A stretch of DNA of 50,772 bases from a bacterium (lineage in GTDB: Bacteria; Zixibacteria; MSB-5A5; GN15; FEB-12). The stretch spans positions 1 through 50,772 of the forward strand of contig JAAERE010000194.1 in the NCBI GenBank assembly GCA_024230675.1, given 5' to 3'. A program made the position numbers and the translations under genes. Positions within the stretch are counted from its first letter, which is position 1. Each line of letters begins with the position of its first letter. The notes under the pieces were generated by a model, which searched no databases, was not told the origin of the DNA, and saw only the letters and a list, made by a program, of their open reading frames with translations. Shown piece by piece: positions 10,135-28,577 of the stretch.

Positions 10135-10150
10135 GCGGTTTTCTTTCGTC

Positions 10151-10843: not shown

Positions 10844-10867
10844 GTCAGCAGCTTTCGTGACCGACGC

Positions 10868-11287: not shown

Positions 11288-12006
11288 TACATAGCTTCCT
11301 TCTTGGCGCGGGCGATGAAATCGAGGACAAAACTGAAACCGGAGTTATTGATGTACTTCAGCCGGTTGTTGGCCCAGTTGTATGCGATGACGGCGGGAAT
11401 AGCGGCTCCCAGACCGACGATCGTCGCGAGCAGAGCCTCGGCGATACCCGGCGCGACCACAGCCAGCGAGGCCGAGCCGCGTTCACCAATCGACCAAAAC
11501 GAATCCATGATACCTACAACCGTACCCAGCAGGCCCAGGAAGGGTGCGGAGCTGCCGGTCGTGGCGAGGAATACCACTTTCTTTTCCAGGATACCGGTTT
11601 CATCGTTGAGCCGGCGTTCCATGGCCATCTCGACGAGCTCAAAATCGCTGTCGGTTAGCGCATTGACTCGATCGCTAAGCCCGCCGACCTCATTCCTCAG
11701 GCCCTTAACGGTGTTCAGTTCCTCGAAACCGGACCTGAAAATGTTGGCCAGGGGAGAGTGGCGGTAGGACTGGGCCTGTCCGGCCACTTCGTCGAGTTTT
11801 CGCGCCCGCCGGAAATACTGCATGAAATTCCGGGTGTCGCCGTCGATCGCCCTGAACTGGCGGAATTTCTGGAAAATCACGGTCCAGGAGACCAGGGACA
11901 TGGCCACCAGAATGACCAGGATTATGGCGCCGAAAGTCGACAGTTGGCCAATAATCTGCCACAGCGATCCGGTAGCCAGAAGCACAGAAGTTAAAAGTAT
12001 CGTCAT
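11287..12006 (-). CDS. tolQ: MotA/TolQ/ExbB proton-channel protein TolQ
   Basis: Three TM segments and the conserved block LATTGSSAPFLGLLGTVVGIM..F. The ATG at 12006 gives 239 aa. The ORF-track start at 12072 is a GTG with no SD. Confidence 0.88.
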   Translation of the reverse strand: MTILLTSVLLATGSLWQIIGQLSTFGAIILVILVAMSLVSWTVIFQKFRQFRAIDGDTRNFMQYFRRARKLDEVAGQAQSYRHSPLANIFRSGFEELNTVKGLRNEVGGLSDRVNALTDSDFELVEMAMERRLNDETGILEKKVVFLATTGSSAPFLGLLGTVVGIMDSFWSIGERGSASLAVVAPGIAEALLATIVGLGAAIPAVIAYNWANNRLKYINNSGFSFVLDFIARAKKEAM

Positions 12007-12099
12007 ACTCGTTGTACAACCGTCTGAGTCTAAAAGTTTGTAACACTGTCGTCGAGGGAAAACATTTCCCACAGAGGAAATAACTTATCGGGAAGCGCC

Positions 12100-13782: not shown

Positions 13783-14535
13783 TTACTTTCTTTTTCTCTG
13801 TCGTATCCTGACCATGACGAGGCACAACAGGATCACAGTCAGACCGCCGTACAGGACAAGGTCGTTGGTCGATTCCGAGGACCCCCGGGACTCCAGGTCG
13901 GCGACTTTTACGTCAGCGTCTTCGCTTCCGACCTCTTCGGTCGAGAACGAGGTCAGCATTTCCGAGAACGAGCCCAGCCCCTCTGTGAGCAGGGAGTCCG
14001 GGCCGTAATAGTAGAAATTGGCAATGCCGCGATCGTAAAACCTCTGTACGAGAACGTTCTTCCTCGGGGCGCCGCCCTCTTCGGTGACATCGCTCATGGC
14101 GGCCAGGGTCTGCAACTCGCTGTCGAAGCCGACTATCTCTTCCGACAGGTCAGCGGTCAGCGAGGCCAGCTTTATCTCTTTCAGTTCACGTCCGAGACTC
14201 TGGACAATAACCCCGATCGCCGAGTCAATCTGCGGCTGAGTCAGGGAGCCCGAAGTGTCGATAGTGAGAATTACATAAACGCCTTCAAACACGGACGGCG
14301 AGTCCTTGGCGGCAAAAACCGCCTCGTAGTTGAGATTACCGGTCGCCTGACGGATATAGTAGTCGGCCGTCTGATAGTCCACTTGCTCCCAATTGTCGGG
14401 ACAGCTGATGTGGAAACCGCCGTTGTAGCTGACAAAAGTCTCGGCCAACCCGTTGGCAGTCAGCAGAAACGTCAGAGCCAGCGCCAGATGCAGCCAGTTT
14501 CTTACTATAGACGTTCGTGATCTCATGCTTCGCAT
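13783..14535 (-). CDS. hypothetical exported protein with a C-terminal membrane anchor
   Basis: N-terminal signal peptide (WLHLALALTFLLTANGLA), a ~200-aa soluble part, and a C-terminal TM (LVLYGGLTVILLCLVMV) followed by RIRQRKRK. Confidence 0.7.
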   Translation of the reverse strand: MRSMRSRTSIVRNWLHLALALTFLLTANGLAETFVSYNGGFHISCPDNWEQVDYQTADYYIRQATGNLNYEAVFAAKDSPSVFEGVYVILTIDTSGSLTQPQIDSAIGVIVQSLGRELKEIKLASLTADLSEEIVGFDSELQTLAAMSDVTEEGGAPRKNVLVQRFYDRGIANFYYYGPDSLLTEGLGSFSEMLTSFSTEEVGSEDADVKVADLESRGSSESTNDLVLYGGLTVILLCLVMVRIRQRKRK

Positions 14536-14553: not shown

Positions 14554-16407
14554 CTAGGCCATGGCTTCCTTCGGATAAATGTCCATCTCCGTCATCCACT
14601 TCCTGAGATAGGAAACGCGTTCCTTCTCGTCCAGGGAAGACAGGTCAAACGGACGACCGCGGCCGTCGAGTACGATTCCGACCACGCCGCCGTAGATTTC
14701 GCGGGTGACGGCGTTGCCTTTGCCGCCGCCTATGTCAAAGCCGCGTTCCGGCTCGAAAGTCGCTTTGACCTTAATGGGCAGGCCGTTGTCCTGAACGCCC
14801 AGCTTGAACAGCTTCAGTTCCAGGTAGTCGAGCGTGCCGGACACCGGGCCGTCTGGCATTTCTATCGTGTACTTCATCACCGGGCCGGCTTTTTTAGCCT
14901 GACCCGCTGGGGCGATACAAGTGCCGAGATGAATCAGGCAGTCTTTTTCGAACACTTCGGTAGCCGCTTTGGGCTGTACCTCGGTCAGAACGCCCAACTG
15001 GGGCATCATGAAAATAGAGTCCACGGCCAGGCGGGTGATACCCTCCGGCATAAAAGCGTCCATCATCATGAGAGCCGACTGTTGCCGGCGAGGGGCGTGA
15101 GACAACACACCGCCCGACCCGATGAGCATATCCAGGGTCATCATGTTTACAATCGTCGCGCCGGAGGACGACTGCTCGAAAGCATCGGCGATAGTCCGCT
15201 GCTGCTGCACGCCTTTCAACACCGTGGCAAAAGACTTGTGCTGCACAAACGCGAGGCGCAGAGCCTCCTTGGCGATCGCCTGCTCGAATATCAACTCTTC
15301 CATCGACTGCGGTATCGTAGTCGGACGGATCATTTTGTTTTTTACGCGGTTGCGGAGGTCGCGCTCGTCCATTTCAAAAGGCACCCAGCGCATAACCATC
15401 GGTAGCGTAGCCTCGGCGAACACGTTTGAGATCGAGTAAGACATGCCCAGGTTAGCTGACACCGTCCGGTTGAATTCGCCGTTGGTGCCGTCGGGGCGGA
15501 AAACCGAGAAGACGTCGGTAGTGGCGCCGCCGATGTCAACCCCGACCGCCTCAATACCGTACTGGTCGGCGATAGTCTGAATAATAAGGCCCACGGCGCC
15601 GGGGGTCGGCATAATCGGGGCGTCGGCCCAGGACATCAGCTTCTTGTAGCCGGGGGCCTGCGCCATGACGTGTTCCATGAAAAGCTCGTGGATTTCTTCA
15701 CGGGCCGGAGCCAGGTTTTCCAATTCCAATACCGGTCGCAGGTTGTCGACGGTGCGAAGATCCACTTTGTCGGCGAGAACGTCGGACACCAATTTGGCTG
15801 CATCTTTGTTTCCGGCGTAGATGATTGGAAGTTGATAGCTGGAACCTAGACGGGGACGAGGGTCGGCTGCCGATATTAATTCGGCAAGTTCGACGACGTG
15901 AGTGGTGGTGCCGCCGTCGATACCCCCCGAAAGCAGGAGCATGTCGGGGCGCAGTTGGCGAATGCGCTCGATCTGCTGGTGCGGCAGGCGCTTGTCGTTG
16001 GAGGCAATTACGTCCATCACGATAGCGCCGGCGCCCAGAGCGGCACGCTCGGCCGATTCCGCCGTCATGGAACGAACCACACCGGCCACCATCATCTGGA
16101 GACCGCCACCGGCCGAGGAGGTGGAGATGTAGACGTCGGTGCCGTTCTTCCCGTTGGCCGGGGAGATGAACTTGCCGTCTTCGTCCAACAGCTTGCGTCC
16201 GGAGAGTTCTTCCAGCTCACCCACTGCGTTCAAAACGCCCATCGTCACGTCTTCGAAAGGAGCTTCCACGGTCGTGGGAGCTTCGCCGCGCGACATGAGA
16301 CGATACTCGCCGTTGACGAATTCGATGAGAATCGCTTTAGTGGTAGTGGAGCCACAGTCGGTGGCCACAATTACTTTGATGTCATGTGCATTTTCAAACT
16401 TTGCCAT
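14554..16407 (-). CDS. GlmL/MutL-family protein (actin/Hsp70-fold ASKHA superfamily), 617 aa
   Basis: N-terminal phosphate-1-like motif VIVATDCGSTTTKAILIE. Then SSAGGGLQMMVAGVV..TAESAERAALGAGA and LLLSGGIDGGT, as in the clostridial glutamate mutase accessory protein GlmL. It is longer than the classical ~460-aa GlmL. Confidence 0.75.
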   Translation of the reverse strand: MAKFENAHDIKVIVATDCGSTTTKAILIEFVNGEYRLMSRGEAPTTVEAPFEDVTMGVLNAVGELEELSGRKLLDEDGKFISPANGKNGTDVYISTSSAGGGLQMMVAGVVRSMTAESAERAALGAGAIVMDVIASNDKRLPHQQIERIRQLRPDMLLLSGGIDGGTTTHVVELAELISAADPRPRLGSSYQLPIIYAGNKDAAKLVSDVLADKVDLRTVDNLRPVLELENLAPAREEIHELFMEHVMAQAPGYKKLMSWADAPIMPTPGAVGLIIQTIADQYGIEAVGVDIGGATTDVFSVFRPDGTNGEFNRTVSANLGMSYSISNVFAEATLPMVMRWVPFEMDERDLRNRVKNKMIRPTTIPQSMEELIFEQAIAKEALRLAFVQHKSFATVLKGVQQQRTIADAFEQSSSGATIVNMMTLDMLIGSGGVLSHAPRRQQSALMMMDAFMPEGITRLAVDSIFMMPQLGVLTEVQPKAATEVFEKDCLIHLGTCIAPAGQAKKAGPVMKYTIEMPDGPVSGTLDYLELKLFKLGVQDNGLPIKVKATFEPERGFDIGGGKGNAVTREIYGGVVGIVLDGRGRPFDLSSLDEKERVSYLRKWMTEMDIYPKEAMA

Positions 16408-16518: not shown

Positions 16519-16547
16519 ATTATAATACAATGTGACAGGCTTGTAAA
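16519..16547 (-). promoter_or_regulatory. sigma70-type promoter candidate for the GlmL-like operon (TTTACA-17-TATAAT)
   Basis: Reverse strand: TTTACA (16547..16542), an exactly 17-nt spacer, consensus TATAAT (16524..16519). It would leave a leader of about 100 nt before the ATG at 16407. Confidence 0.55.
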
Positions 16548-16801: not shown

Positions 16802-16830
16802 TTGACTTGCCTTAACGGGCCCGGTAGATT
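16802..16830 (+). promoter_or_regulatory. sigma70-type promoter candidate for the 12-gene operon (GCTTGACT-17-TAGATT)
   Basis: TTGACT at 16802..16807, a 17-nt spacer, TAGATT at 16825..16830. Confidence 0.4.
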
Positions 16831-16873
16831 GCCTGATCTTCTTGAGACCCCTTCGCTTATGGGGCTCTTGAGG

Positions 16874-16902: not shown

Positions 16903-17017
16903 ATGATTTGATAGCCCGCAGGTTGTTTCGTCACTTCTGAGACACTGAAACAGTTCGCACTTTTGACGGGCAGCTTGGCTTACAACCGGGGAAGAGGATT
17001 TGGATATTTACAGACAG

Positions 17018-18259
17018 ATGTCTCACCGCAGGTGTTCTGCGATGTGCTCCCTCGCCCTTGTTGTCCTCATTTTCATTCTGACAATCGGAAACGCTCTCGC
17101 CCAGGAGGAAGTCCTTCCGCCGGATTCGACGGCCGTCGTTGAAGAGGCCGCCTACGCTCAGCCGGTCCTCAACCTTCAGGCAGAAGACAAGCCCAACGAC
17201 GCCGGCGGTGCCGTGCGAGTCTCCTGGGATGTGTCTACCGATGACGACGGTGATGGCGGTATCATAGGGTATACGATTTATCGAGGAACGGCGGCTGCCG
17301 GTCCGTACGAAGTCGTAGGCCAGGTGCCTTCCGGAAAGTCAGATTTTGATGACGGCAACACGGCAGACAGCCTCACTTACTATTACAAAGTGATTGCGAT
17401 GAACGACGCCTTGTTTAGCGCCGGAGTGACCGAGGTCGAAATGGCCCTGGCGACGACCGCAGGTCCGGTGCAGTCCTCGGAGCAATGGTTTGATTTTCGT
17501 CGTATCAACGTCTTTGCCGGCACCCTGCTGCTCAGCTTCCTTATCATCTTCATGATTTCCCGGGCCAAAGCGGGCAAGAAGCTATTTATCCGCAAGATAG
17601 CCGGTATGGAGGCGGTCGATGAGGCCGTCGGGCGCGCCACGGAGATGGGCAAAAAGATATTCTACGTGCCCGGTATCAACGACATGGACAACGTGCAGAC
17701 AATCGCCAGCATGACGATTCTCGGGCGTGTCGCCGAACTGGCCGGGCAGTACGACACCTGGCTGGAAGTCCCGGTCTGTCGTTCGCTGGTGATGGTAACG
17801 GCCAAGGAAGTGGTCAAAGAAGCTTACACCAAGGTCGGTCGGCCGGACTCATTCCAGGAGAATCAGGTCCATTACCTGACCGATGACCAGTTTGGGTATG
17901 CGGCGGCTATCGACGGCATGGTTGTCCGCGAAAAGCCGGCGACAATTTTCTATATGGGGGCGTTCTTCGCTGAATCGCTGATTCTGGCTGAGACGGGTAA
18001 CGCCACCGGCGCAATTCAAATTGCCGGCACAGCGATGCCCTCACAGCTTCCGTTCTTTGTTGCTTCGTGTGACTACACGCTCATCGGCGAGGAGCTGTTT
18101 GCGGCTTCCGCGTATTTGTCCCGAGAGCCGAAATTGCTCGGTTCGCTAAAAGGGCAGGATATGGGCAAGGCAATTATCCTGGTTTCAATGGTAGTGGGTA
18201 TCATTTTGGAGACATTTGGTATCTGGGAATTCTCACAGTTATTCTCGGTGATTGAATAG
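17018..18259 (+). CDS. cassette 1, family A: signal peptide, FN3-like periplasmic domain, TM, conserved ~200-aa module, C-terminal TM (uncharacterised)
   Basis: FN3-like pattern PVLNLQAEDK..GGAVRVSWDVS..IIGYTIYRG..LTYYYKVIAMND, then TM VFAGTLLLSFLIIFMI. Conserved block KKLFIRKIAGMEAVDEAVGRATEMG...FFAESLILAETG...CDYTLIGEELFAASAYL. Paralogs at 20557 and 24286. The ATG at 17018 gives a clean signal peptide; an alternative TTG start lies at 17000. Confidence 0.85.
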   Translation: MSHRRCSAMCSLALVVLIFILTIGNALAQEEVLPPDSTAVVEEAAYAQPVLNLQAEDKPNDAGGAVRVSWDVSTDDDGDGGIIGYTIYRGTAAAGPYEVVGQVPSGKSDFDDGNTADSLTYYYKVIAMNDALFSAGVTEVEMALATTAGPVQSSEQWFDFRRINVFAGTLLLSFLIIFMISRAKAGKKLFIRKIAGMEAVDEAVGRATEMGKKIFYVPGINDMDNVQTIASMTILGRVAELAGQYDTWLEVPVCRSLVMVTAKEVVKEAYTKVGRPDSFQENQVHYLTDDQFGYAAAIDGMVVREKPATIFYMGAFFAESLILAETGNATGAIQIAGTAMPSQLPFFVASCDYTLIGEELFAASAYLSREPKLLGSLKGQDMGKAIILVSMVVGIILETFGIWEFSQLFSVIE

Positions 18260-18261
18260 TT

Positions 18262-18909
18262 ATGCGCAGAGAGATACCCCTTCTGATAACAGCAATTGCC
18301 GGCGTAGTTTTCGTCGTTCAGTATTTCATTCCTCATTCCCCTTTTAATCATCTTGACGGCTGGTTTTCTGACTGGTTCTCGATTGTCCAGGCCTGCGCTA
18401 TTGTGCTTGGATCGCTGAACCTGCTGATGATCTCGAGTCAGAAGATAGCGAGAAAGAAAGAGGGATGGGGCTACGCTGTCGTGATAATCGTGTCGTTTTT
18501 CCTCATCACGATTATCGGGTTTGCCGGAGGCGAGGAATTCCGCGATGTCGGCACCGGCTTTGATTGGCTCTACAATTACACTTACGTGCCGCTGTCGTCG
18601 ACGATGTACGCCATCCTGGCGTTTTTCGTGGCATCGGCTTCGTACCGGGCCTTCAGGGCTCGCAACGCGGAAGCAACCCTGCTGTTGCTGGCCGCGTTTT
18701 TTGTGATGCTGGGGCGGGTACCGATCGGGGATCTGTTGACAATGTGGATGCCGGAAGGTTTCCGCATGTCGAACCTGGCGACGTGGATCATGGATTTCCC
18801 GCAGACAGCCGGTCAGCGCGCCATTATGATAGGCATCGCGCTCGGCCTGGTCTCGACTTCCCTGAGAGTGATTCTCGGTATCGAACGTTCACATCTGGGA
18901 GGTGAATAA
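18262..18909 (+). CDS. cassette 1, family B: ~6-TM integral membrane protein (uncharacterised)
   Basis: Starts 2 nt after the A1 stop. Conserved blocks STMYAILAFFVASASYRAFRARNAEATLLLLAAF and AGQRAIMIGIALGLVSTSLRVILGIERSHLGG are shared with 21821 and 25898. Confidence 0.85.
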   Translation: MRREIPLLITAIAGVVFVVQYFIPHSPFNHLDGWFSDWFSIVQACAIVLGSLNLLMISSQKIARKKEGWGYAVVIIVSFFLITIIGFAGGEEFRDVGTGFDWLYNYTYVPLSSTMYAILAFFVASASYRAFRARNAEATLLLLAAFFVMLGRVPIGDLLTMWMPEGFRMSNLATWIMDFPQTAGQRAIMIGIALGLVSTSLRVILGIERSHLGGE

Positions 18910-18910
18910 C

Positions 18911-19921
18911 ATGAAAATGAAGCGTGGTGAAGTTATTGTCCTCCTCGTCCTGGCGGTTGGCAGCGTCCTGGCGTATCTCGGGAAGATAAACGGCTGGCAC
19001 AGCGGTTTTATGTTCCCCAAGTGGCTCTCGATAACCATTGTCAGTCTCACGTTTCTCTCAATGGTCTGGATGCTCGTCCGCACGATTCAAGGAAAACTGG
19101 TGGAGCGCCGGATCGTATTCCTGTACGTGGGTATTGCCGTTGCCCTGCCGCTCCTGATGGAACTTCCTCAGAAAATCATCGTGTCGGACATTGTTCGCGC
19201 TGTCTACACCGAGCTGGAGGCCCTGCAGCCGGGCTCGAAAGTTCTCGTTTCGTTCGACTACGACCCGGCGTCGGCCCCGGAACTTCAACCGATGGCCGAG
19301 GCGTTTATCGCCGAGTGTTTCGAGCGCGACCTTACCGTTATTATGATGGGGCTCTGGCCTCAGGGGCCACAGCAGGCGGCCATGGCGGTTGACAGTGCCA
19401 TGAAGAGAATGGGCTATACCGATCAGGATAAGGTGTACGGGGTCGACTATGTGAACCTCGGATACCAGGCCGGCAACGAGTTCGTTATCCAGCGTATGGG
19501 GTCCAGCTTCCAGTCCATGTTCAAAACAGACTTCCTGGGGACTCCCTATGAGGATATCCCGCTGGTCAAAAACGTCAAGAACTTCTCAAATATAAATTTC
19601 TCCTTCAACTTGTCCTCCGGCTTCCCCGGAACGGTTGAGTGGGTTCAGGTAGCGGTCGACCGCTACGGTCTTCGGATGGGGGCCGGCAATACAGCGGTGC
19701 AGGCGCCGACCATCTACCCATATGTGAGATCAAAGCAGGTGCTGGGACTTCTCGGCGGAATGAACGGCGGCGCGGAGTTTGAGACGGTCACCGGACTTCC
19801 GGGCAAAGCGATCGGATTCATGCTGCCACAGTCTTTTGCGCACCTGATCGTAATTGGGTTTATCATCATCGGCAATGTGGCTTTCTTCCGGGAAGGGCGC
19901 AAGTCGAGGCTTAAGGGATAG
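18911..19921 (+). CDS. cassette 1, family C: membrane-tethered periplasmic-domain protein (uncharacterised)
   Basis: The ATG at 18911 follows the SD GGAGGTG (alternative GTG at 18902, overlapping B1). Conserved blocks GSKVLVSFDYDPASAPELQPMA, GVDYVNLGYQAGNE and YPY...GLLGG. The C-terminal TM AHLIVIGFIIIGNVAFF is followed by basic residues. Confidence 0.85.
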   Translation: MKMKRGEVIVLLVLAVGSVLAYLGKINGWHSGFMFPKWLSITIVSLTFLSMVWMLVRTIQGKLVERRIVFLYVGIAVALPLLMELPQKIIVSDIVRAVYTELEALQPGSKVLVSFDYDPASAPELQPMAEAFIAECFERDLTVIMMGLWPQGPQQAAMAVDSAMKRMGYTDQDKVYGVDYVNLGYQAGNEFVIQRMGSSFQSMFKTDFLGTPYEDIPLVKNVKNFSNINFSFNLSSGFPGTVEWVQVAVDRYGLRMGAGNTAVQAPTIYPYVRSKQVLGLLGGMNGGAEFETVTGLPGKAIGFMLPQSFAHLIVIGFIIIGNVAFFREGRKSRLKG

Positions 19922-19933
19922 GGCGGAGTAGTA

Positions 19934-20557
19934 ATGGAACATTTTGGACTCTGGGTTGGTGCATTCCTGACTCTGGGAATTTACTCTTTCCTATACCGTG
20001 ACAACGCCTGGTATAAGCTGTGCGAAGCCATTTTTATCGGCATTTCGGCCGGGTACTGGGTGGTAATTCTCTTCTGGGATAACTTTTACGGCAAGTTTTG
20101 GATCGGTCGCGAAGAAGAGCCTATGCTCTGGGTGGGCGCCGCTCTTGGCGTGCTGATGCTCTGCCGACTGGTTCCCAGGATCGGCTGGATTTCACGCTGG
20201 CCACTGGCGTTTATCGTGGGCGCAACCGCCGGGCTGTGGATGATGAACTACTTCTCATCCAACATCATGGCTCAGGTGCAGAGCACTATCATGCCGCTCC
20301 TCGGCGAAGGCTACAGTGCCTCGTTTGGCGAGATAGTCGGCAATTTTGTAATCGCCGTTGGCACGTTCGCAGGACTGATATATTTCTATTTCTCAAAAGA
20401 ACACAAAGGAGCCTTCGGAGCTACGGCTCGCTTAGGCATTTGGGTAATCATGATCACCTTCGGCGCCTCGTTTGGCTATACGGTCATGAGCCGTATGTCT
20501 TTGCTGATCGGGCGCATCGACTTCTTACTGGGTGACTGGCTGGGGCTGATTCAATAG
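19934..20557 (+). CDS. cassette 1, family D: ~6-TM integral membrane protein (uncharacterised)
   Basis: Conserved blocks FLTLGIYSFLYRDN.WYK..E, SRWPLAFIVG, GLIYFYFSKEH.GAFG and GIWVIMITFGASFGYTVM. The stop TAG (20555..20557) overlaps the GTG start of A2 by 1 nt. Confidence 0.85.
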   Translation: MEHFGLWVGAFLTLGIYSFLYRDNAWYKLCEAIFIGISAGYWVVILFWDNFYGKFWIGREEEPMLWVGAALGVLMLCRLVPRIGWISRWPLAFIVGATAGLWMMNYFSSNIMAQVQSTIMPLLGEGYSASFGEIVGNFVIAVGTFAGLIYFYFSKEHKGAFGATARLGIWVIMITFGASFGYTVMSRMSLLIGRIDFLLGDWLGLIQ

Positions 20558-21813
20558 TGATTGTCGAACCCCAACAAGCCCGGGTTGTGATCCCGGGCAC
20601 CGTCCGATTCCTCCTGTTAGCCTTTCTGGCCGTGGTCGTGAGTATAACCAGTACTGCCACCGCTTCCGAACCCAACGCCGACTCAACTCTTCTTGAAACC
20701 CAGCAAGTCGAACCCGTGACTTCGCTAGTCGCGCAGGATTTCAAATACGACAACGGCGAACGCATTGAACTGTTCTGGGTGCCTTCGGTCGACGACCGTC
20801 TGGTCGACGGGCTGGTGACGGGCTATGAAGTGTATCGCACCGTCAACGAGGGCGATCCTCAGAGACTGGCGATTCTGCCGCCCGGCGCAAACACGTTCCG
20901 CGACGAGGCAGCCGAAATCGACAGCGTTTATTCGTACTATATTACTACGCTCGCCGAAGAGACCAGCGCCAAGTCTGTGGCCACCGAGCCGATGACCTCC
21001 GAGAGGGAGTGGCTGAATAGAGATCGTGGCTATCTGTTCCTGATCGCATTTGTCATTGCTGCGGCCGTGATCTTTTTTGTTGAGACGGCCAAGCGGGGAA
21101 AGAAGCTTTTCATTCGCAAGATCGCCGGACTGGAAGCTATCGATGACGCCGTGGGGCGCGCTACTGAGATGGGCCGACCGGTCCTCTTCGTGCCGGGGAT
21201 TCATGACATGGACGATGTCCAGACGCTGGCGGCCCTGACGATCCTCGGCCGCGTTTCCCGTACGATTGCCGACTACGATTCCAAGATTTTCATGCCGGTA
21301 TCACGCTCGCTGGTGATGACGGCCGCGCGCGAAACTATAAAGTCGTCCTATATGGCCGCTGGTCGCCCCGATGCCTACAACGACGACATGGTCAATTACG
21401 TGACCGACGAGCAATTCGGTTACGTGGCGTCGGTCGATGGTCTCATTGTCCGTGAGAAACCAGCCACGATATTCCTGCTCGGGGCCTTTTTTGCGGAATC
21501 GCTCATATTGGCTGAGACTGGAAACTCCGTCGGTGCGATTCAGATAGCGGGCACCGCCCGTCCGGCGCAGTTGCCGTTTTTTATAGCCGCTTGTGACTTT
21601 ACGCTGATCGGCGAGGAGCTGTTTGCAGCCTCGGCCTATCTCTCGGATGAACCAAAACAATTGGGGTCGCTCAAAGGACAGGACGTAGGCAAAGGTATCG
21701 CTATGTTCTTTGTGATCGCCGGTACGGTAGCGGCGACCATCTCCTACGCATGGGATATTGGCCCTGTGAACGATGTGCTGGATTGGCTTAACCAGGTATT
21801 TTCATCGAATTGA
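20557..21813 (+). CDS. cassette 2, family A: signal peptide, FN3-like domain, TM, conserved module, C-terminal TM (uncharacterised)
   Basis: FN3-like ERIELFWVPS..VTGYEVYR..SVYSYYITTLAEE. Conserved block KKLFIRKIAGLEAIDDAVGRATEMG...FFAESLILAETG...CDFTLIGEELFAASAYL. By my ungapped by-eye alignment, about two-thirds of positions match A1 across the conserved module. Confidence 0.85.
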   Translation: MIVEPQQARVVIPGTVRFLLLAFLAVVVSITSTATASEPNADSTLLETQQVEPVTSLVAQDFKYDNGERIELFWVPSVDDRLVDGLVTGYEVYRTVNEGDPQRLAILPPGANTFRDEAAEIDSVYSYYITTLAEETSAKSVATEPMTSEREWLNRDRGYLFLIAFVIAAAVIFFVETAKRGKKLFIRKIAGLEAIDDAVGRATEMGRPVLFVPGIHDMDDVQTLAALTILGRVSRTIADYDSKIFMPVSRSLVMTAARETIKSSYMAAGRPDAYNDDMVNYVTDEQFGYVASVDGLIVREKPATIFLLGAFFAESLILAETGNSVGAIQIAGTARPAQLPFFIAACDFTLIGEELFAASAYLSDEPKQLGSLKGQDVGKGIAMFFVIAGTVAATISYAWDIGPVNDVLDWLNQVFSSN

Positions 21814-21820
21814 TTAGACT

Positions 21821-22498
21821 ATGAAGCGACAAATACCTCTCTTAATTACGTTTTTCGTCGGCACCCTGCTGATCATATCGGTATTCGTGCCGCCGCTGGG
21901 TGACCTTGAGAGAGACTTCACACTCTTTTTTGATATCATAGCTGTTTTCGCATTTTTCCTGGGCGGTGGAAACCTTCTGAGGATTCACCTTATGAAGCTG
22001 GCCAACCGCCGCAAGGACTGGGGTTTTTCGGCGGTCACCGTGTCCGGCTTCTTGTTCATGCTGGCCATAGGACTGTTCAAAGTCGGCAATCCCGGCGGTA
22101 TAGCGGAGGCTGTCGACGCCGAGGGCTCGTGGTTCAAGGTGATGTTCGACAACGTCATCAATCCGCTACAGTCGACTATGTACTCACTGTTGGCGTTTTT
22201 TGTGGCCTCGGCCTCTTATCGTGCTTTCCGAGCCAAAAACCGCGAAGCCACTATGTTGCTGATCGCCGCATTCATCATTCTGCTGGGGCGCACGCCACTG
22301 GGAGTAATGTTAACCGGCTGGATACCCGAGTGGATGTCGGTGGCCCAGATACCTAATCTGGCCGTCTGGATAATGAACTCGCCGAACCTGGCCGGTCAGC
22401 GTGCTATCATGATTGGAATCAGTCTCGGCGTTATAGCGACCTCGTTGAGGCTCATCCTCGGCGTGGAACGGTCGTACCTGGGAGGTGACAGTGACTAA
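21821..22498 (+). CDS. cassette 2, family B: ~6-TM integral membrane protein (uncharacterised)
   Basis: Contains MKRQIPLLITFF..., STMYSLLAFFVASASYRAFRAKNREATMLLIAAF and AGQRAIMIGISLGVIATSLRLILGVERSYLGG. Confidence 0.85.
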   Translation: MKRQIPLLITFFVGTLLIISVFVPPLGDLERDFTLFFDIIAVFAFFLGGGNLLRIHLMKLANRRKDWGFSAVTVSGFLFMLAIGLFKVGNPGGIAEAVDAEGSWFKVMFDNVINPLQSTMYSLLAFFVASASYRAFRAKNREATMLLIAAFIILLGRTPLGVMLTGWIPEWMSVAQIPNLAVWIMNSPNLAGQRAIMIGISLGVIATSLRLILGVERSYLGGDSD

Positions 22499-23408
22499 CA
22501 TCGGTGTCATCCTTACCCTGATTGTGATATTCGGCGGCCTGCTGTGGCTGCTGGTACGCTCTATCAGCGGTCGTGAAGTAGACCGCCGCATTATTTTCCT
22601 GTTCATTTTCGTCTCGGTCGCGGCGCCGATTATTTTCCAGATTACATTCAAGGAGCGAGCCACTCCGGTGGTCGAGGCGCTTTTCGCGAATATCGACGGT
22701 CTCCCGGCGGGCTCCAAGGTCCTCATATCTTTCGATTTCGATCCGGCGATGGCGCCCGAGGTGCAGCCGATGGCCAACGCCATGTCGCGGCACTGTCTCG
22801 AGAAGGGTCACAAGATCGTGTTTATGTCTCTCTGGGCGACGGGTCAGTCACTAATGACCACCACTTTGAGCAGAGTTATTCTGCCTGAGTTCCCCGAGAA
22901 GGTCAACGGTGTGGACTATGTCAACGTCGGCTACAAAGCCGGCAATGAGGGCGTGCTGAACGTCATCGTATCAGATTTCAAGAAGATGTTCCCCACCGAC
23001 GTCAATGGAGTGCCGCTCGATTCCACTCAGCTTTTCCGCGACATTCGCAGTTGCGCTGATCTCGATCTGATCATTGCCCTTGGCGGTGGCAGACCCGGTC
23101 CCAAAGAATGGGTCCTGTTCGTCGGTGATCCGGCCGATGTCCCGGTAGGCGTAGGCGTGGCGGCTGTCGTAGCACCGCAGTTGTACCCGTACTTCCCGCA
23201 GCAGATTGTCGGCATCCTGGGCGGTGTCAAGGGCGCGGCGGAGTACGAGCAGTTGTTGATCGCCACCCACGATCGTTTTGTTGATATGGAGACGCCGGGC
23301 ATCGACATGATGGGGCCGCAGACACTGGCCCACGTAGTTATCATGGCTTTCATCGTGATAGGCAACATTGCTTTCTTCCGCAGTCGTTCGAAGGGAGGCA
23401 GCAAATGA
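22491..23408 (+). CDS. cassette 2, family C: membrane-tethered periplasmic-domain protein (uncharacterised)
   Basis: The GTG at 22491 lies 5 nt after GGAGG (alternative GTG at 22485) and overlaps the end of B2. Contains GSKVLISFDFDPAMAPEVQPMA, GVDYVNVGYKAGNE and YPYF..QIVGILGG, plus a C-terminal TM AHVVIMAFIVIGNIAFF. Confidence 0.85.
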   Translation: MTNIGVILTLIVIFGGLLWLLVRSISGREVDRRIIFLFIFVSVAAPIIFQITFKERATPVVEALFANIDGLPAGSKVLISFDFDPAMAPEVQPMANAMSRHCLEKGHKIVFMSLWATGQSLMTTTLSRVILPEFPEKVNGVDYVNVGYKAGNEGVLNVIVSDFKKMFPTDVNGVPLDSTQLFRDIRSCADLDLIIALGGGRPGPKEWVLFVGDPADVPVGVGVAAVVAPQLYPYFPQQIVGILGGVKGAAEYEQLLIATHDRFVDMETPGIDMMGPQTLAHVVIMAFIVIGNIAFFRSRSKGGSK

Positions 23409-24256
23409 GCCGAACGGCTGTTATCGTGTTCGCCGGCGTAGTGGCGCTTTTTGTTGTCAGTTGGATGGTTAAGGCCATGGTTCTGGCAGATGTCTCCGAG
23501 ACCAACATCGTGGACGCTTTCATGGTGACCGTGGCGGCTTTTCTAACTCTGGCCATTTACTCTTTCCTCTACAAAGACAATCCCTATTACAAATTCGCCG
23601 AACACCTTTTTGTTGGTGTGTCGGCCGCTTTCTGGATGGTTCAGGGGTTCTGGACGACAATCGTCGGCAACCTTCTGCCGCGTCTTTCCGAAGGACTGGC
23701 TACCTGGTTCCAGCAGCCCTATCAGGGCGGTGGCTACGATCTGGGAGTTTTTGTTTTTCCATATTCGATCATGTACTGGATCCCGGTGATTCTCGGCTCG
23801 CTGTTACTGATGCGTCTATCGCCTCAGGGAGGCTGGTTGTCCCGCTGGCCGCTGGCACTGATTGTTGGTACGACCGCCGGTCTTAACTTCGTAAGGTACC
23901 TTCGCTCTGACTTCATCGTACAGGTGGCGGCGACGTTTGTACCTCTGTTTGGCCGTGACCCGCACCCCTGGCAGGGCTTCGGTCACTTCTTTTCCAACCT
24001 GGACCTCTCGGCTTCGGGCCAGTTTGTGGCTCTTCTGTCGAACTGGGTTATTTTCATTGGCGTATTCTGTGGCTTGATCTACTTCTTCTTCTCCAAGGAG
24101 CACACCGGGGCGTTTGGGAAAGCCTCCCGTGTGGGAATCTGGATTTTGATGATAACGTTCGGCGCCTCGTTTGGATATACGGTCATGGGCCGAATATCGC
24201 TCCTGGTGGGACGCCTGACGTTCCTGTTTAGAGACTGGTTGGGGCTGATTAGTTAA
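23405..24256 (+). CDS. cassette 2, family D: integral membrane protein with an extra N-terminal TM (uncharacterised)
   Basis: The ATG overlaps the C2 stop (ATGA) and follows the SD GGGAGG. Contains FLTLAIYSFLYKDNPYYKFAEH, SRWPLALIVG, GLIYFFFSKEHTGAFG and GIWILMITFGASFGYTVM. Confidence 0.85.
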   Translation: MSRTAVIVFAGVVALFVVSWMVKAMVLADVSETNIVDAFMVTVAAFLTLAIYSFLYKDNPYYKFAEHLFVGVSAAFWMVQGFWTTIVGNLLPRLSEGLATWFQQPYQGGGYDLGVFVFPYSIMYWIPVILGSLLLMRLSPQGGWLSRWPLALIVGTTAGLNFVRYLRSDFIVQVAATFVPLFGRDPHPWQGFGHFFSNLDLSASGQFVALLSNWVIFIGVFCGLIYFFFSKEHTGAFGKASRVGIWILMITFGASFGYTVMGRISLLVGRLTFLFRDWLGLIS

Positions 24257-24285
24257 TACATACCCTTGCACGAAAGGGCAGCTAT

Positions 24286-25884
24286 ATGAGATTTTTGTTC
24301 GGACTAACTGTAATCCTGGCCCTGCTCCTGGGGGCGAGCGTTTCGGCGCAAACCGAACCGCCCGTCACAGATTCAGTAGCAGACTCGGTCGAGGTGCCGG
24401 CGATACCACCGCCAGCGCCGGTTACGGATCTCAAGGCTCTTGATACCGACGACGACCACGGTCATTCGGTTACGCTTACGTGGACGAAATCGGTCGACGC
24501 CCAGACGGGGCAGAACACCGTAAACGGACACCAAATCTTCCGGTGGTACCCGGCGATGATGGACTCTTTGGCGGGCGTGGATTCTCTTAAGAATATGCGT
24601 CAGGATATCCAGAGGGCACAGTCGGCCAACTCGGTATTCAGGAGAGCCCTGGGCGTGGCCGAGGACGCCCTTGAGGATCTCACCAGCGGCGGACGGGGTT
24701 TCGACGCCCTGCGCTTCACCGTGGCGACGCCGCAAGATGACAGCACTTTTGTCCTCGACCGCGCTTTTGTCGAGCAGGCGCTCAGGGACACTGTCGCCAC
24801 TATGACGACGCACCTGCCTCTGCTTCCGGACAGCATAAAGGGCCTGCAGGCCTCTTTCGAGGCCGCCATTGAGAGGCTGACCGAGGCCCATCAGGCGTAT
24901 CCTGAGGGAGGTAGCTGGAATCTGGTCGGCCTGGCTGCCAAAGGTGACACTTCCTTCGTTAATTCCGGGAACAAAGATCCAATGTCGGGTGACTTCATCA
25001 AGGATTTCACCGATCTTTACTATCGCGTCGACGTGGTGACCATCGATGAGACGATTCGAACCGAGTCCGCCATCGTCGGTCCGGTGCAAAGCGAAGGCCA
25101 GTGGTTCAACGGCGGACGCTTCCCGGTCTTTTGGGCCGTCATCATATTCGGCTTCCTCACCATGTACTTCGTAAGCCGGGCCAGAAAAGGGGACGACCTG
25201 TACGTCCGTCCGCTGGCCGGTATCGAGGCTGTTGACGACGCTATCGGTCGTGCCACGGAAATGGGCCGCCCGATTCTCTACGTGCTCGGTCTGGGTACGG
25301 CTGCCGATGTTGCCACGATCGCCTCGTTTACGGTTCTGGGACGTGTGGCCAAACAGGTGGCCGAGTACCAGACGGAGTTGATTGTGCCGACTTACGATCC
25401 GATCGTTATGTCGGTGGCCCAGGAGGTAGTCAAATCCTCCTATCTTGACGCCGGTCGTCCCGATGACTACAAAGAAAACACTGTCTTCTTCGTTACGAAT
25501 CTTCAGTTCGCATATGTGGCCGCCGTCAACGGCATCATGCTTCGCGAGCTGCCGGCGACCAATATTTACATGGGCAAGTTCTTCGCCGAGTCTCTGTTGC
25601 TGGCGGAAACGGGTGCTCTGGCCGGCTCGATTCAGATAGCCGGCACCGACGAGATCGCACAAATTCCGTTCTTCATTGTGGCCTGTGACTACACGCTTAT
25701 CGGTGAGGAGCTATACGCCGCTTCCGCCTACCTGGGGCGCGAGCCGATTTTACTCGGATCGCTCAAAGCTCAGGACTGGGCCAAAGCGGCGGTGATCGTG
25801 TTGGGCATCGTCGGACTAGTAGCCGCCAATCTCGAATGGGGATTCGCGAAAACATTCCTTGAATATTTTCACGTAACCAACTAG
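24286..25884 (+). CDS. cassette 3, family A: as A1/A2, but the FN3-like domain is split by a ~120-aa helical insertion (uncharacterised)
   Basis: Signal peptide MRFLFGLTVILALLLGASVSA. First FN3-like half is VTLTWTKSV..GHQIFRW. The insertion spans about residues 89-209. Second half is WNLVGLA..DLYYRVDVVTID. Conserved module LAGIEAVDDAIGRATEMG...FFAESLLLAETG...CDYTLIGEELYAASAYL. Confidence 0.85.
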   Translation: MRFLFGLTVILALLLGASVSAQTEPPVTDSVADSVEVPAIPPPAPVTDLKALDTDDDHGHSVTLTWTKSVDAQTGQNTVNGHQIFRWYPAMMDSLAGVDSLKNMRQDIQRAQSANSVFRRALGVAEDALEDLTSGGRGFDALRFTVATPQDDSTFVLDRAFVEQALRDTVATMTTHLPLLPDSIKGLQASFEAAIERLTEAHQAYPEGGSWNLVGLAAKGDTSFVNSGNKDPMSGDFIKDFTDLYYRVDVVTIDETIRTESAIVGPVQSEGQWFNGGRFPVFWAVIIFGFLTMYFVSRARKGDDLYVRPLAGIEAVDDAIGRATEMGRPILYVLGLGTAADVATIASFTVLGRVAKQVAEYQTELIVPTYDPIVMSVAQEVVKSSYLDAGRPDDYKENTVFFVTNLQFAYVAAVNGIMLRELPATNIYMGKFFAESLLLAETGALAGSIQIAGTDEIAQIPFFIVACDYTLIGEELYAASAYLGREPILLGSLKAQDWAKAAVIVLGIVGLVAANLEWGFAKTFLEYFHVTN

Positions 25885-25897
25885 GAGGATACATATC

Positions 25898-26713
25898 ATG
25901 AAAAGACAAGTTCCTCTGGTTTTGGTTCTCCTTTTCGGACTGTTCATGATTTTTCAGTACTTCGTACCGCATGAATCTTCCGAATGGGTTTACGAGTTCC
26001 TGCTTGACTGGATCTATATCATCGGCATATTCGCCCTTGCTCTGGGGATCTGGTCCCTGTATGTGGTTTCGGTCGATAAGGTCAAAACCAGGAAGCATGA
26101 CTGGGGATATTCATACGTAACCCTGGCGGGGCTCTTCGGCATGATCCTGTTCGGCTTCACGGCCCGTCATGGCGACGAATGGGGTTGGTATCTTATCTTC
26201 GTGGCCTGTGTGCTGCTGACAGTCATTATGTCGGTGCAGGCGATGGCCGCCAGAATCAACAAAGGACTGCCGCTGGGTCTGGCCGGGTTGTTCCTGCTGG
26301 GGGCCGTACTGATAGCAGTCTTCGACGATACCTGGAGTTTCTACTTCTACACGCAGGAGGGTCTCCAGAGTACAATGTTCCGGGCATTCTTCGACTATAT
26401 CATGATGCCCATCCTGGCTACGATTTTTTCGCTCCTTGCGTTCTTCATTGCCTCTGCGGCTTACCGGGCCTTCCGCGCCAGGAACCTCCTGGCTTCGCTG
26501 CTCCTGATTGCCGCTCTAATCGTGATGATGAGATTCTTCCCTTACTTTGGCGAAAACGTCGGGGAATTCATCGCCCGGGTTTCAAGCTGGCTTATGAACG
26601 TGCCCAACCTGGCCGCACAGCGTGCGATCATTATAGGGGTTGGCCTCGGTATTGTAGCTACCGCTCTCAAGGTCATTCTCGGTATTGAGCGCGGCTATAT
26701 GGGGAAAGGATAA
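25898..26713 (+). CDS. cassette 3, family B: integral membrane protein with about two additional TM helices (uncharacterised)
   Basis: SD AGGAGG. Contains MKRQVPLVLVLL.., a hydrophobic segment absent from B1/B2 (WYLIFVACVLLTVIM...LGLAGLFLLGAVLIAVF), then ATIFSLLAFFIASAAYRAFRARN and AAQRAIIIGVGLGIVATALKVILGIERGYMG. Confidence 0.85.
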   Translation: MKRQVPLVLVLLFGLFMIFQYFVPHESSEWVYEFLLDWIYIIGIFALALGIWSLYVVSVDKVKTRKHDWGYSYVTLAGLFGMILFGFTARHGDEWGWYLIFVACVLLTVIMSVQAMAARINKGLPLGLAGLFLLGAVLIAVFDDTWSFYFYTQEGLQSTMFRAFFDYIMMPILATIFSLLAFFIASAAYRAFRARNLLASLLLIAALIVMMRFFPYFGENVGEFIARVSSWLMNVPNLAAQRAIIIGVGLGIVATALKVILGIERGYMGKG

Positions 26714-26724
26714 GGAAACCACAC

Positions 26725-27606
26725 ATGATTAATTTCTTTGACAGACTTATGCGGCTTGACCGGCGGTGGATCTTCCTCTTCCTCATCGTGGTTTGCATCA
26801 TTGCGTATGTCTCGGATTTCGACGTACCCATCATGCCCGAGCGTGAGGTGGAGACGATTTACGAGTTCGTGGACAGTCTGCCGCCGGGCGAGATCGTCAT
26901 GATTGCGATCGACTACGATCCCAACAACCTGGCCGAGTTGCATCCGATGACCTACGCTATTGTTGAACAGTGCTGGCGCAAGAACCTGAAAGTGCTGATT
27001 ACTTCGCTTTCTCAGAACGGCCCAGGCATGGCCGACGAGGCTCTGCGCAGTATCACCGATTCGCTGGCCGAAACCAAGACCTACAACGGTCAGGTGTACG
27101 AAGGCCGGGAAGTTGTTAACGGTGTGGATTACTGCTTCCTCGGTTACAAGCCCTATTTCGCGCTGGTGATCCTGGGCATGGGGCAGAACTTCCGGCTACC
27201 GTTCCCGGAAGATTATTACGGCACGCCGCTTGATTCGATTCCGATGATGCAGGGTGTTTTGAACTACGACGATGTCGCCTGTGTGATCGACTTATCGGGA
27301 GGCAACATCACCGACTATTGGATTTCCTACGGTCAGAATCGGTTCAACTTCCCGCTGGCCCTGGGGCTTACCGGGGTTATGACCGCCCAGTACTACCCGT
27401 ATCTCGGCTCCGGACAGGTGTTCGGAATCATGGGGGGGCTGCTGGGGGCGGCGCAGTACGAGAAGCTGGTCGATAACGCCGGTCTGGCCAGGGACGGGAT
27501 GCGTGTGCAACTTCCCGCTCATATCGTTATCATCCTGTTCATCCTGGTAGGCAATATCGGGTTCTTTGTGGATCGACGTAACCGCCACCGGGCAGAGGGG
27601 AGGTAG
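26725..27606 (+). CDS. cassette 3, family C: membrane-tethered periplasmic-domain protein (uncharacterised)
   Basis: A single N-terminal TM after RLDRRW. Contains GEIVMIAIDYDPNNLAELHPMT, GVDYCFLGYKP and YPYLGSGQVFGIMGG, plus a C-terminal TM AHIVIILFILVGNIGFF followed by RRNRHR. Confidence 0.85.
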   Translation: MINFFDRLMRLDRRWIFLFLIVVCIIAYVSDFDVPIMPEREVETIYEFVDSLPPGEIVMIAIDYDPNNLAELHPMTYAIVEQCWRKNLKVLITSLSQNGPGMADEALRSITDSLAETKTYNGQVYEGREVVNGVDYCFLGYKPYFALVILGMGQNFRLPFPEDYYGTPLDSIPMMQGVLNYDDVACVIDLSGGNITDYWISYGQNRFNFPLALGLTGVMTAQYYPYLGSGQVFGIMGGLLGAAQYEKLVDNAGLARDGMRVQLPAHIVIILFILVGNIGFFVDRRNRHRAEGR

Positions 27607-27608
27607 CC

Positions 27609-28451
27609 GTGGACTTTACTACTTTCTTATGGACCACCTTCGCCGCTTTTGTGACGCTGGCGACTTTCTCGTTCCTTTACAAGGACAACCCGTTTTATAA
27701 GTTCGCAGAGCACCTCGTGGTAGGTGTGGCGGCCGGTTACTTTGTCATCATTCTCTGGCACAACGGCCTGGTACCGAACCTGTTCCGGCGCCTGGCCGAC
27801 GGTGACTGGTATCTCCTGTGGCTTAACTCCACTATGTGGTGGTATCTGATACCGGCCATTCTGGGCGCTCTCATGTGGACGCGCTTTTCGAAGAGATGGT
27901 CCTGGGTCTCGCGCTGGCCGATGGGGCTGTATATCGGTATCTCGACCGGTGTGGCGATTCCGCTGGAAATGTCCAACCGCGTGAGCAAGCAGCTTTACGC
28001 GACTATGATAGTCAACCCTCAGAACCCCGGTATCGACTGGGCAAACTTCTGGGGACACGGCGGTTTCGATCTTCTGGATGTGGCCTCGGGCTTTTCCCAA
28101 GTGCTGATATTTATCGGTGCCGTGGCCGCCCTGATATATTTCTTCTTCTCAAAAGCGCATACCGGAATATTCGGCAAGGCTGCCACCTTCGGGATCTGGA
28201 TTCTGATGATCGGTTTTGGCGCCTCGTTCGGCTTCACGGTGATGGCGCGTATTTCCCTGTTCATCAACCGGCTACAGTTCATCGATCAAGAATGGATCCA
28301 GCACGCCATGAATCCGGAGAATATGGTCAACGGCTCTCACTGGCCTTACCAGTTGGTGTTCTGGGCGATGATTCTGGTTGTTGTCGGGTATATGGTATTC
28401 GAGCTTGTGCAACACTTCTCGTCCAAGGGGAAAGCTGCACCAGCAGAGTAA
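27609..28451 (+). CDS. cassette 3, family D: integral membrane protein with an extra C-terminal TM (uncharacterised)
   Basis: GTG start 2 nt after the C3 stop, with the SD GGGGAGG. Contains FVTLATFSFLYKDNPFYKFAEH, SRWPMGLYIG, ALIYFFFSKAHTGIFG and GIWILMIGFGASFGFTVM, plus an extra helix LVFWAMILVVVGYMVF. Confidence 0.85.
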   Translation: MDFTTFLWTTFAAFVTLATFSFLYKDNPFYKFAEHLVVGVAAGYFVIILWHNGLVPNLFRRLADGDWYLLWLNSTMWWYLIPAILGALMWTRFSKRWSWVSRWPMGLYIGISTGVAIPLEMSNRVSKQLYATMIVNPQNPGIDWANFWGHGGFDLLDVASGFSQVLIFIGAVAALIYFFFSKAHTGIFGKAATFGIWILMIGFGASFGFTVMARISLFINRLQFIDQEWIQHAMNPENMVNGSHWPYQLVFWAMILVVVGYMVFELVQHFSSKGKAAPAE

Positions 28452-28478
28452 AGTCGACTGACTCATATTGAACTCAAG

Positions 28479-28510
28479 AATCCCGCTTCTTCGGAGGCGG
28501 GATTTTTTTT
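28479..28510 (+). terminator. strong intrinsic terminator closing the 12-gene operon
   Basis: Stem AATCCCGCTTC / GAGGCGGGATT (one G-U pair), TTCG tetraloop, then a T8 run (28503..28510). It lies 28 nt after the D3 stop. Confidence 0.85.
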
Positions 28511-28577
28511 CGTTTACAGTAGTCAAGATGCACTTTTGTGCGTAGAAGAATTAGTTGACAATTGATGACAGTCCGTC

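Follow-up and report, generated by a model that had tools for sequence, protein, structure and literature searches.

Three diverged tandem copies of a four-gene membrane protein module in Zixibacteria, and the frequent linkage of the module to a MutL-like ATPase

What kind of system is encoded by an operon in which the same four membrane protein genes occur three times in a row? The question is raised by contig JAAERE010000194.1 of assembly GCA_024230675.1, from a bacterium of the GTDB lineage Bacteria; Zixibacteria; MSB-5A5; GN15; FEB-12. The stretch analysed here, positions 1 to 50,772 of the forward strand (50,772 nt), is referred to as the window. An earlier note on this DNA, made from the sequence alone and without database searches, described twelve open reading frames (ORFs), which it read as a four-gene cassette (A-B-C-D) repeated three times, and proposed that they specify a novel multi-subunit machine of the inner membrane or envelope. 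All twelve were found where the note had placed them, as consecutive + strand ORFs between 17000 and 28451 with intergenic spacings of -14 to +29 bp, and the region 17018-28451 is one operon consisting of three anciently diverged tandem copies of the four-gene module. The proposal of a novel machine was supported, and nothing in the searches that bear on it (for a characterised counterpart, for co-occurrence of the four families outside this genome, and for an assembly artefact) went against it. What the note overlooked were two soluble partners (U1 and U3), a recurrent ExbB/ExbD neighbourhood, and a periplasmic FN3 domain in family A. The system should be extended to six or seven genes, including an actin-fold ATPase.

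Organization and Ancestry of the Operon

The first cassette comprises A1 (17018..18259), B1 (18262..18909), C1 (18911..19921) and D1 (19934..20557), the second A2 (20557..21813), B2 (21821..22498), C2 (22491..23408) and D2 (23405..24256), and the third A3 (24286..25884), B3 (25898..26713), C3 (26725..27606) and D3 (27609..28451), all on the + strand. Alternative start codons are available for A1 (TTG at 17000, ATG at 17042) and for C2 (GTG at 22485); the C2 orthologue in locus L080, the closest relative of the window, is 305 aa long. The four paralogue families and their recurring order, originally recognised by eye, agree with the results of blastp. Within family A, the proteins share 46% (A1/A2), 47% (A1/A3) and 48% (A2/A3) identity; B1 is 48% identical to B2 and 29% to B3; family C gives 39% (C1/C2), 31% (C1/C3) and 33% (C2/C3); and family D gives 46% (D1/D2), 36% (D1/D3) and 44% (D2/D3), with within-family E-values of 1e-27 to 1e-123. 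No similarity was found across families A, B, C and D, either by blastp or by profile-profile comparison (hhalign). The signature motifs that the note had assigned to each family were recovered with minor exceptions, A3 having LAG in place of IAG and C2 having DFDP in place of DYDP.

The DNA of the paralogues aligns only in its most conserved stretches, at 64–72% identity, which indicates that the copies are old and are not the product of an assembly collapse, as the note had argued from codon differences. The same triple layout has been assembled independently in many other metagenome-assembled genomes (MAGs) and in a related 3.84-Mb genome, where it is exactly as in the window. In addition, copies 1, 2 and 3 have positional orthologues across Zixibacteria, to which they are 55–81% identical, versus 29–52% to their paralogues. 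This holds for all four families, and the triplication therefore occurred en bloc and is older than the zixibacterial radiation.

The flanking signals that had been proposed for the operon were also recovered. A consensus scan places a promoter at 16802..16830 (+; TTGACT-N17-TAGATT), with -35 and -10 hexamers that do not vary when the site is aligned with five related Zixibacteria loci, and a second sigma70-like site at 16874-16902 (+). Downstream of D3 is an intrinsic terminator (28476..28515, +) with a 14-bp stem, a TTCG loop and a T8 run, which the scan located at 28476-28507. A 5' leader of about 180 nt (16837-17017, +) separates the conserved promoter from A1, and it includes a hairpin (about 16848-16880) that is common only to the window and L080 and has no Rfam match. 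The Rfam scan of the window returned no family, including no cobalamin riboswitch. A 429-aa ORF on the opposite strand (24373-25662, -) lies wholly within A3, and is most likely a spurious by-product of the GC-rich coding region.

Predicted Topology and Conservation of the Membrane Proteins

Transmembrane (TM) segments were predicted in all twelve products, as the note had anticipated. Its view that they belong to no nameable family holds for B, C and D but not for A, which carries an FN3 domain and DUF6754 (PF20539). A1 and A2 match the DUF6754 model end to end (A1, E = 1e-124, 415 bits; A2, E = 4e-120, 400 bits; gathering score 27 bits). In A3, alignment with A1 and A2 reveals the same invariant DUF6754 motifs, as well as an insertion of about 110 aa in the FN3 region, and the positional orthologue of A3 in L080 carries PF20539. 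The name DUF6754 conveys no functional information.

The arrangement predicted for A1 is a signal peptide, a periplasmic FN3 domain, a TM helix, the cytoplasmic DUF6754 region, and a C-terminal TM helix. The extracytoplasmic part matched a titin FN3 domain (E = 7.5e-19, profile against PDB sequences). An AlphaFold2 (AF2) model of A1 (pLDDT 73) shows, from N to C, an N-terminal helix, FN3 (residues 57–158), a TM helix (166–190), an alpha/beta domain (about 200–320), a poorly modelled segment (324–362), and a second TM helix (377–405). The top 50 Foldseek matches of the model were nearly all to FN3 or other beta-sandwich domains, and none outside FN3 was better than about 4e-4, a result that only bounds the DUF6754 part because FN3 matches filled the places. 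By counts of lysine plus arginine (K+R), the alpha/beta domain is assigned to the cytoplasm, whereas FN3 and the C-terminal tail are assigned to the outside.

Conservation in this family is strongly lopsided. In an alignment of 43 sequences drawn from many phyla, the most frequent residue at a position has an average frequency of 0.72 in the cytoplasmic domain and 0.89 between residues 320 and 375, versus 0.36 in the external FN3 part, and 40 of the 56 columns in region 320–375 are at least 90% conserved. This segment is acidic, and E325, E331, D358, E364 and E365 are invariant. The three A paralogues of the window follow the same trend, with 57–69% identity in the cytoplasmic part against 26–28% in the ectodomain. 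A conserved cytoplasmic side combined with variable ectodomains suggests that the interface in the cytoplasm is constant and that the output in the periplasm varies. Elsewhere, the ectodomains of A proteins reach about 700 aa, and take the form of C-terminal EF-hand pairs, BamB-like beta-propellers or multiple FN3 domains (P0323, P0346, P0377, P0392 and P0368). An external C-terminal tail fits those variants in which EF-hand pairs follow the last helix, and the ectodomains of A are swappable.

The other three families are also predicted to span the membrane. B proteins have six TM helices with both termini inside, according to K+R counts, and an invariant, arginine-rich YRAFRA loop on the cytoplasmic side. 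C1 has N-terminal TM helices, a Rossmann-like alpha/beta domain that its charge bias places in the periplasm, and a C-terminal TM helix (AF2 model, pLDDT 89.4, pTM 0.83). D1 is polytopic, with about six TM helices and conserved loops (YxDNxxYKxxE, SRWP and YFSKEHKGxFG) on the K+R-rich cytoplasmic side, and TM segments are likewise predicted in its paralogue D3. On the periplasmic side, it is the third cassette that diverges most: the insertion in A3 is predicted to be helical, and B3 has two extra TM helices. C3 is a minimal form, in which the periplasmic domain lies between a single N-terminal TM helix and the C-terminal one.

For B, C and D there was no informative match in Pfam, NCBIfam, PADLOC or PDB sequence profiles. 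Pfam scans of individual members (37–43 homologues per family) gave only scattered, sub-threshold hits to TMD0_ABC, Acyl_transf_3 and TraX, none of them consistent; TMD0_ABC, for example, appeared in 13 of 43 B proteins (best E = 2.7e-4, 21.5 bits against a cut-off of 27). The Foldseek search with the C model found generic Rossmann folds only (SDR, GT-B), with TM-scores of at most 0.32 and none at E<=1e-3. When profiles of A, B, C, D, U1 and U3 were compared with PDB sequences (hmmsearch), the FN3 domain of A was the sole meaningful match. The check for an already characterised system (Pfam, NCBIfam, PADLOC, PDB profiles, and Foldseek with the A and C models) thus returned none. Neither a Walker A motif nor an ATP-binding cassette (ABC) signature is conserved, in agreement with the note; a lone GQVPSGKS string in the variable FN3 part of A1 has no counterpart in A2 or A3, and matches by chance. 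Invariant cysteines number one in A and zero in B, C and D, and invariant histidines are also few.

Distribution and Amplification of the Module

To what extent do the four families occur together outside this genome? A scan of GTDB with one genome per species confirmed at least 526 relatives, from which 79 loci were kept. Profile searches of these loci show that the A-B-C-D order is retained in essentially every one that is long enough, in at least 15 phyla. The loci cover Zixibacteria, WOR-3, Stahlbacteria, Coatesbacteria, Fermentibacteria, Aegiribacteria, Eisenbacteria, Edwardsbacteria, Poribacteria, Cloacimonadota, Acidobacteriota, Gemmatimonadetes, Armatimonadota, 'Deltaproteobacteria' and Phycisphaerales. 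A second protein search added Latescibacterota and the Planctomycetaceae (among them the cultured Maioricimonas rarisocia and Gimesia sp.), and contigs of Gimesia and of further PVC-type bacteria show the same order. All of the closest named homologues of A1 belong to Candidatus Zixiibacteriota. Among 1.84 billion cluster representatives at 50% identity, relatives of DUF6754 number 2169 at E<=1e-3, 1607 at 1e-10 and 776 at 1e-30.

Most phyla have one cassette, and Zixibacteria have two or three in tandem; the copy numbers seen overall are 1, 2, 3 and 3+1. The last of these is found in the WOR-3 genome CP070705 (L065, L026), where an independent and younger en-bloc triplication (65–81% identity between copies) is accompanied by a fourth, divergent cassette elsewhere in the genome. 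The four-gene module is the unit, and its amplification is a recurrent, lineage-specific event.

A MutL-Like ATPase and Other Linked Genes

Soluble partners of the module were found by clustering the flanking ORFs of the loci and by phmmer searches. In the window, they are encoded on the opposite strand, upstream of the cassettes. U1 (14554..16407, -) is a 617-aa ATPase of the MutL/GlmL family, with the ASKHA (actin) fold (PF13941, E = 3e-128, 428.8 bits). U3 (12603..13724, -; 373 aa) shows a weak N-terminal barrel-sandwich-hybrid (BSH) signal, with Pfam scores below cut-off for RnfC_N (E = 0.0012, 19.3 against 25.6 bits) and Biotin_lipoyl (0.0075), and is always paired with U1. Between them lies U2 (13783..14535, -; 250 aa), which combines a signal peptide with a TM anchor at the C-terminus, has no family match, and occurs only in window-like Zixibacteria. 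A promoter for the U1-U2-U3 operon (16519..16547, -; TTTACA-N17-TATAAT, 11/12 to consensus) is conserved in related loci, and the pair diverges from the cassettes, with conserved back-to-back promoters, both in the window and in its relatives.

The two partners are strongly constrained. U1 is 62–87% identical across phyla, including Zixibacteria, Acidobacteriota and Planctomycetes, and U3 (a family of about 375 aa) is 50–73% identical. Profile searches against the PDB found no sequence-detectable relative of known structure for either protein. In Fermentibacteria-like bacteria, Acidobacteriota, Phycisphaerales, Planctomycetaceae and other loci, the genes for MutL, BSH, A, B, C and D follow one another in that order as one operon, are co-directional, and abut or overlap, and in two loci (L024 and L037) the MutL/BSH pair lies between two cassettes. 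No gene for a B12-dependent mutase was found near U1, either in the window neighbourhood (U2, U3, the Tol/Exb genes and the A-D cassettes) or in the annotated related loci. The cassette was also considered as an internal duplication (A-B and C-D), an idea that was dropped when hhalign found no relation among the four families, or with U1 or U3.

Two further small proteins are encoded near the module in other bacteria but not in the window. S1 (115–126 aa) has a 'HAFAV..P..F.P' motif, and in PVC-type loci and others outside Zixibacteria its gene lies 5' of the one for the MutL-like protein (L081 6554-6934; L082 4631-5005; L084 4622-4969; L048 6448-6954). S2, present in some loci, has two TM helices.

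Genes for ExbB and ExbD lie within 10 kb of the module in four phyla, and in four different arrangements. In Zixibacteria, a Tol-Pal-type cluster follows U3; in the window this consists of genes for ExbB/TolQ, ExbD/TolR, TonB_2 (TolA-like) and a TolB beta-propeller protein, identified by Pfam, directly downstream of U3 (8830..12072, -). L080 has the same layout (with ExbD annotated), and there a gene of 172 aa and one that is TPR/YfiO-like come next. ExbB and ExbD genes are downstream of the module in WOR-3 and upstream of it in Gimesia, and in Fermentibacteria-like loci the genes for a TonB-dependent receptor, ExbB, ExbD and TonB come directly after D.

Possible Roles of the Module

How might these components work together? 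The explanation that we favour, and to which we give about an even chance of being right, is that A-D form a new inner-membrane complex that docks the ATPase/BSH pair and transmits an ATP-driven change to the periplasm, with the cassettes of the window serving as alternative modules. Docking of the ATPase and the BSH protein is suggested by the conservation pattern described above and by the close association, within operons, with an ATPase that is itself very conserved. Each A-B-C-D set would form an inner-membrane complex of about 16–18 helices, and U1 and U3 would dock on its highly conserved cytoplasmic face. An ATP-driven conformational change could then pass across the membrane to the Rossmann-like domain of C and to the FN3, beta-propeller or EF-hand modules of A. 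These periplasmic domains would act on an envelope partner or cargo, possibly with ExbBD-type motors, so that the output would be either movement of the cargo or an action on the partner. The three cassettes would be isoforms sharing one cytoplasmic engine. The earlier note had allowed both for isoforms and for a single hetero-assembly, and the evidence favours three isoforms because genomes normally have a single cassette and other lineages have amplified theirs independently.

Several points weigh against this proposal. The physical assembly of the module proteins into a complex, the coupling to ATP, the direction of action and the cargo are all matters that we infer. Roughly half of the loci that include 4 kb or more upstream of the module have no nearby MutL/BSH genes (WOR-3, Poribacteria, 'Deltaproteobacteria' and Edwardsbacteria), so that linkage to the pair, as judged within loci, is frequent, not universal. 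To our knowledge, MutL/GlmL relatives are otherwise known solely as accessories of B12-dependent mutases, as their NCBIfam names indicate, with no obvious link to membranes. One locus (L083, 6866-9275) has a 377-aa gene of the position and size of the BSH gene, followed by A and then by rhomboid and thioredoxin genes, and there neither B, C and D nor MutL are adjacent. Residues 324–362 of A, in the most conserved part of the family, have a pLDDT below 50. Finally, the proximity of ExbBD genes could be due to a general clustering of envelope genes.

A broader idea, which we advance only tentatively, is that A-D, the MutL-like ATPase and the BSH protein represent an unrecognised class of trans-envelope machine, powered by an ASKHA ATPase and working alongside ExbBD-type motors, which lineages tune by amplifying interchangeable modules.

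If the complex were instead the permease of a TonB-dependent uptake system, C could be a tethered substrate-binding domain, the ATPase would energise import or process the cargo, and the cassettes would differ in substrate. We consider this unlikely. The receptor, ExbB, ExbD and TonB genes directly after the module in Fermentibacteria-like loci and the ExbBD/TonB genes nearby in WOR-3 and Zixibacteria are what speak for it, as do the 16–18 or so TM helices per module, with invariant Glu, Asp and Arg residues near the membrane, and the repeated, independent amplification, which resembles transporter diversification. However, receptor adjacency is confined to five closely related loci, and neither a riboswitch nor any other regulator that points to a substrate was found in the window (Rfam). 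The invariant charged residues are the same in all paralogues, which argues that they serve mechanism and not specificity, and the variable ectodomains (FN3, beta-propeller, EF-hand) are scaffolds for binding proteins or glycans, atypical of a solute permease. A specific form of uptake, related to B12, had come to mind from the combination of a GlmL-like ATPase with a TonB system, and was rejected when no cobalamin riboswitch and no mutase or cobalamin genes were found nearby.

The extreme, actin-like conservation of U1 and the Tol-Pal-type cluster directly downstream of U3 in this lineage (TolQ, TolR, a TolA-like protein and TolB, with the TPR/YfiO gene in L080) could also be accommodated by a morphogenetic scaffold, in which the MutL-like protein polymerises or acts as a scaffold and A-D anchor it to the envelope. 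Such a structure would be analogous to MreB-MreC-MreD or the FtsA-divisome, working with Tol-Pal in division or outer-membrane maintenance, and the varied protein-binding domains in the periplasm would suit it. It is nonetheless improbable, given that the system is missing from most bacteria, and so is no general division component, that PVC-type loci have no Tol-Pal cluster nearby, and that triplicated membrane anchors would be unusual for a division or elongation scaffold. The polymerisation of MutL-family proteins is also without supporting evidence.

The loci in which MutL/BSH genes are out of reach raise a further alternative, namely that A-D are a self-sufficient complex driven by ions or the proton-motive force (an ion transporter or stator-like motor), next to which MutL and BSH are frequent neighbours with a separate function. 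The invariant acidic residues of A, along with invariant arginines of B and D, could in that case form an ion path, but the conserved acidic segment of A is not predicted to span the membrane, and conservation is strongest on the cytoplasmic face, as would fit the docking of soluble partners. In several phyla, translational coupling is suggested by MutL-BSH-A genes that adjoin or overlap one another, and the position of the pair between two cassettes in L024 and L037 is also difficult to reconcile with a separate function; this alternative is quite doubtful. That all twelve proteins make up one obligate hetero-assembly of three related modules is very improbable, since for all the tight packing of the genes between one promoter and one terminator, and the retention of three copies in the same order across Zixibacteria, most phyla have a single cassette, copy numbers vary (1, 2, 3, 3+1), and amplification has been independent at least twice.

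Two other roles were examined and set aside. Participation in anti-phage defence was dropped because A1, B1, C1, D1, U1, U2 and U3 have no match in PADLOC-DB at E<=0.01, and a redox complex because there are almost no conserved Cys or His residues.

Comparison with Characterised Systems

DUF6754 is a catalogue label without a function, applied to proteins annotated as 'fibronectin type III domain-containing' or 'DUF6754 domain-containing'. Its database members have the same architecture as A (FN3, TM helix, DUF6754, TM helix), and the partners B, C and D and the link to MutL/BSH are not part of the entry. U1 belongs to the same Pfam family (PF13941) as the GlmL/MutL accessories of the B12-dependent glutamate and ornithine mutases (NF040745, NF040744), and like them it keeps the ASKHA phosphate-1 (DCGSTTTK), phosphate-2 (DIGGATTD) and adenosine (GSGGVLSHAP) motifs. 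It differs from GlmL and Or-4 in scoring far below the equivalog cut-offs (NF040745, 233.8 against 475 bits; NF040744, 218 against 600; TIGR01319, also below cut-off, 171 against 204), in having about 130 extra aa at the C-terminus, and in adjoining genes for membrane proteins and no mutase. Membership of a known family holds only for A (DUF6754 plus FN3) and, in the broad Pfam MutL family, for U1.

Several well-known systems offer analogies. In the mechanotransmission ABC systems FtsEX, LolCDE and MacB, a cytoplasmic ATPase is coupled to membrane subunits with periplasmic domains, and in energy-coupling factor (ECF) transporters the S-components share EcfAA'T, much as several membrane modules could share one engine here. 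The likeness in both cases is one of analogy only: the module has no ABC ATPase, Walker A motif or LSGGQ signature, and no FtsX/MacB or ECF Pfam match above cut-off. Rnf and Na+-NQR also have a peripheral BSH subunit (compare the weak RnfC_N signal of U3), two small polytopic subunits of about 200 aa, and a membrane-anchored subunit with a periplasmic domain. However, no Rnf-Nqr, NQR2_RnfD_RnfE, FMN_bind, RnfC or iron-sulfur Pfam match was found in the module, and conserved cysteines are almost absent. In MreB-MreC-MreD and PilM-PilN-PilO, an ASKHA-fold protein is co-encoded with membrane proteins that carry periplasmic domains, but there is no sequence or profile similarity to them, and the present module has four membrane subunits and a BSH protein. 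Like the ABC and ECF systems, these operons are close to the module in function only and are not homologous to it. As for the Ton/Tol motors, MotA_ExbB, ExbD and TonB_C domains occur only in the neighbouring genes and not in A-D.

Neither the accession PF20539 nor the name DUF6754 was found in the literature searched. Searches on PF13941, on GlmL/actin-like proteins, and on Zixibacteria or Planctomycetes with Exb returned nothing on the module, and a 2025 paper on periplasmic force transducers does not mention it in the passages searched. According to these databases and the searchable literature, the system is undescribed, and no family database covers three of its four membrane subunits. A system so constrained, present in at least 15 mostly uncultivated phyla and with U1 at 62–87% identity, almost certainly has an important envelope or transport function in much of the uncultivated bacterial world.

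We know of no actin-like-fold ATPase that powers a membrane transporter or mechanotransducer. If the proposed coupling is true, an actin-fold ATPase working with a membrane complex would be a new type of energised membrane machine. The single-copy version carried by cultured Planctomycetes (Gimesia and Maioricimonas rarisocia) makes the system open to experiment now.

Genes Downstream of the Cassettes

Beyond the terminator of the operon, a gene (28865-29212, +) specifies a very basic protein of 115 aa without a family match, and is followed by one for pyruvate phosphate dikinase (29362-32169, +). This pair is syntenic downstream of the cassettes in several other Zixibacteria loci (L009, L028, L031, L042 and L053). 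Further along are housekeeping genes, coding for an ADP-forming acetyl-CoA synthetase-type protein (32417-34534, +; CoA_binding, Succ_CoA_lig and ATP-grasp_5 domains) and glutamyl-tRNA synthetase (35113-36558, +).

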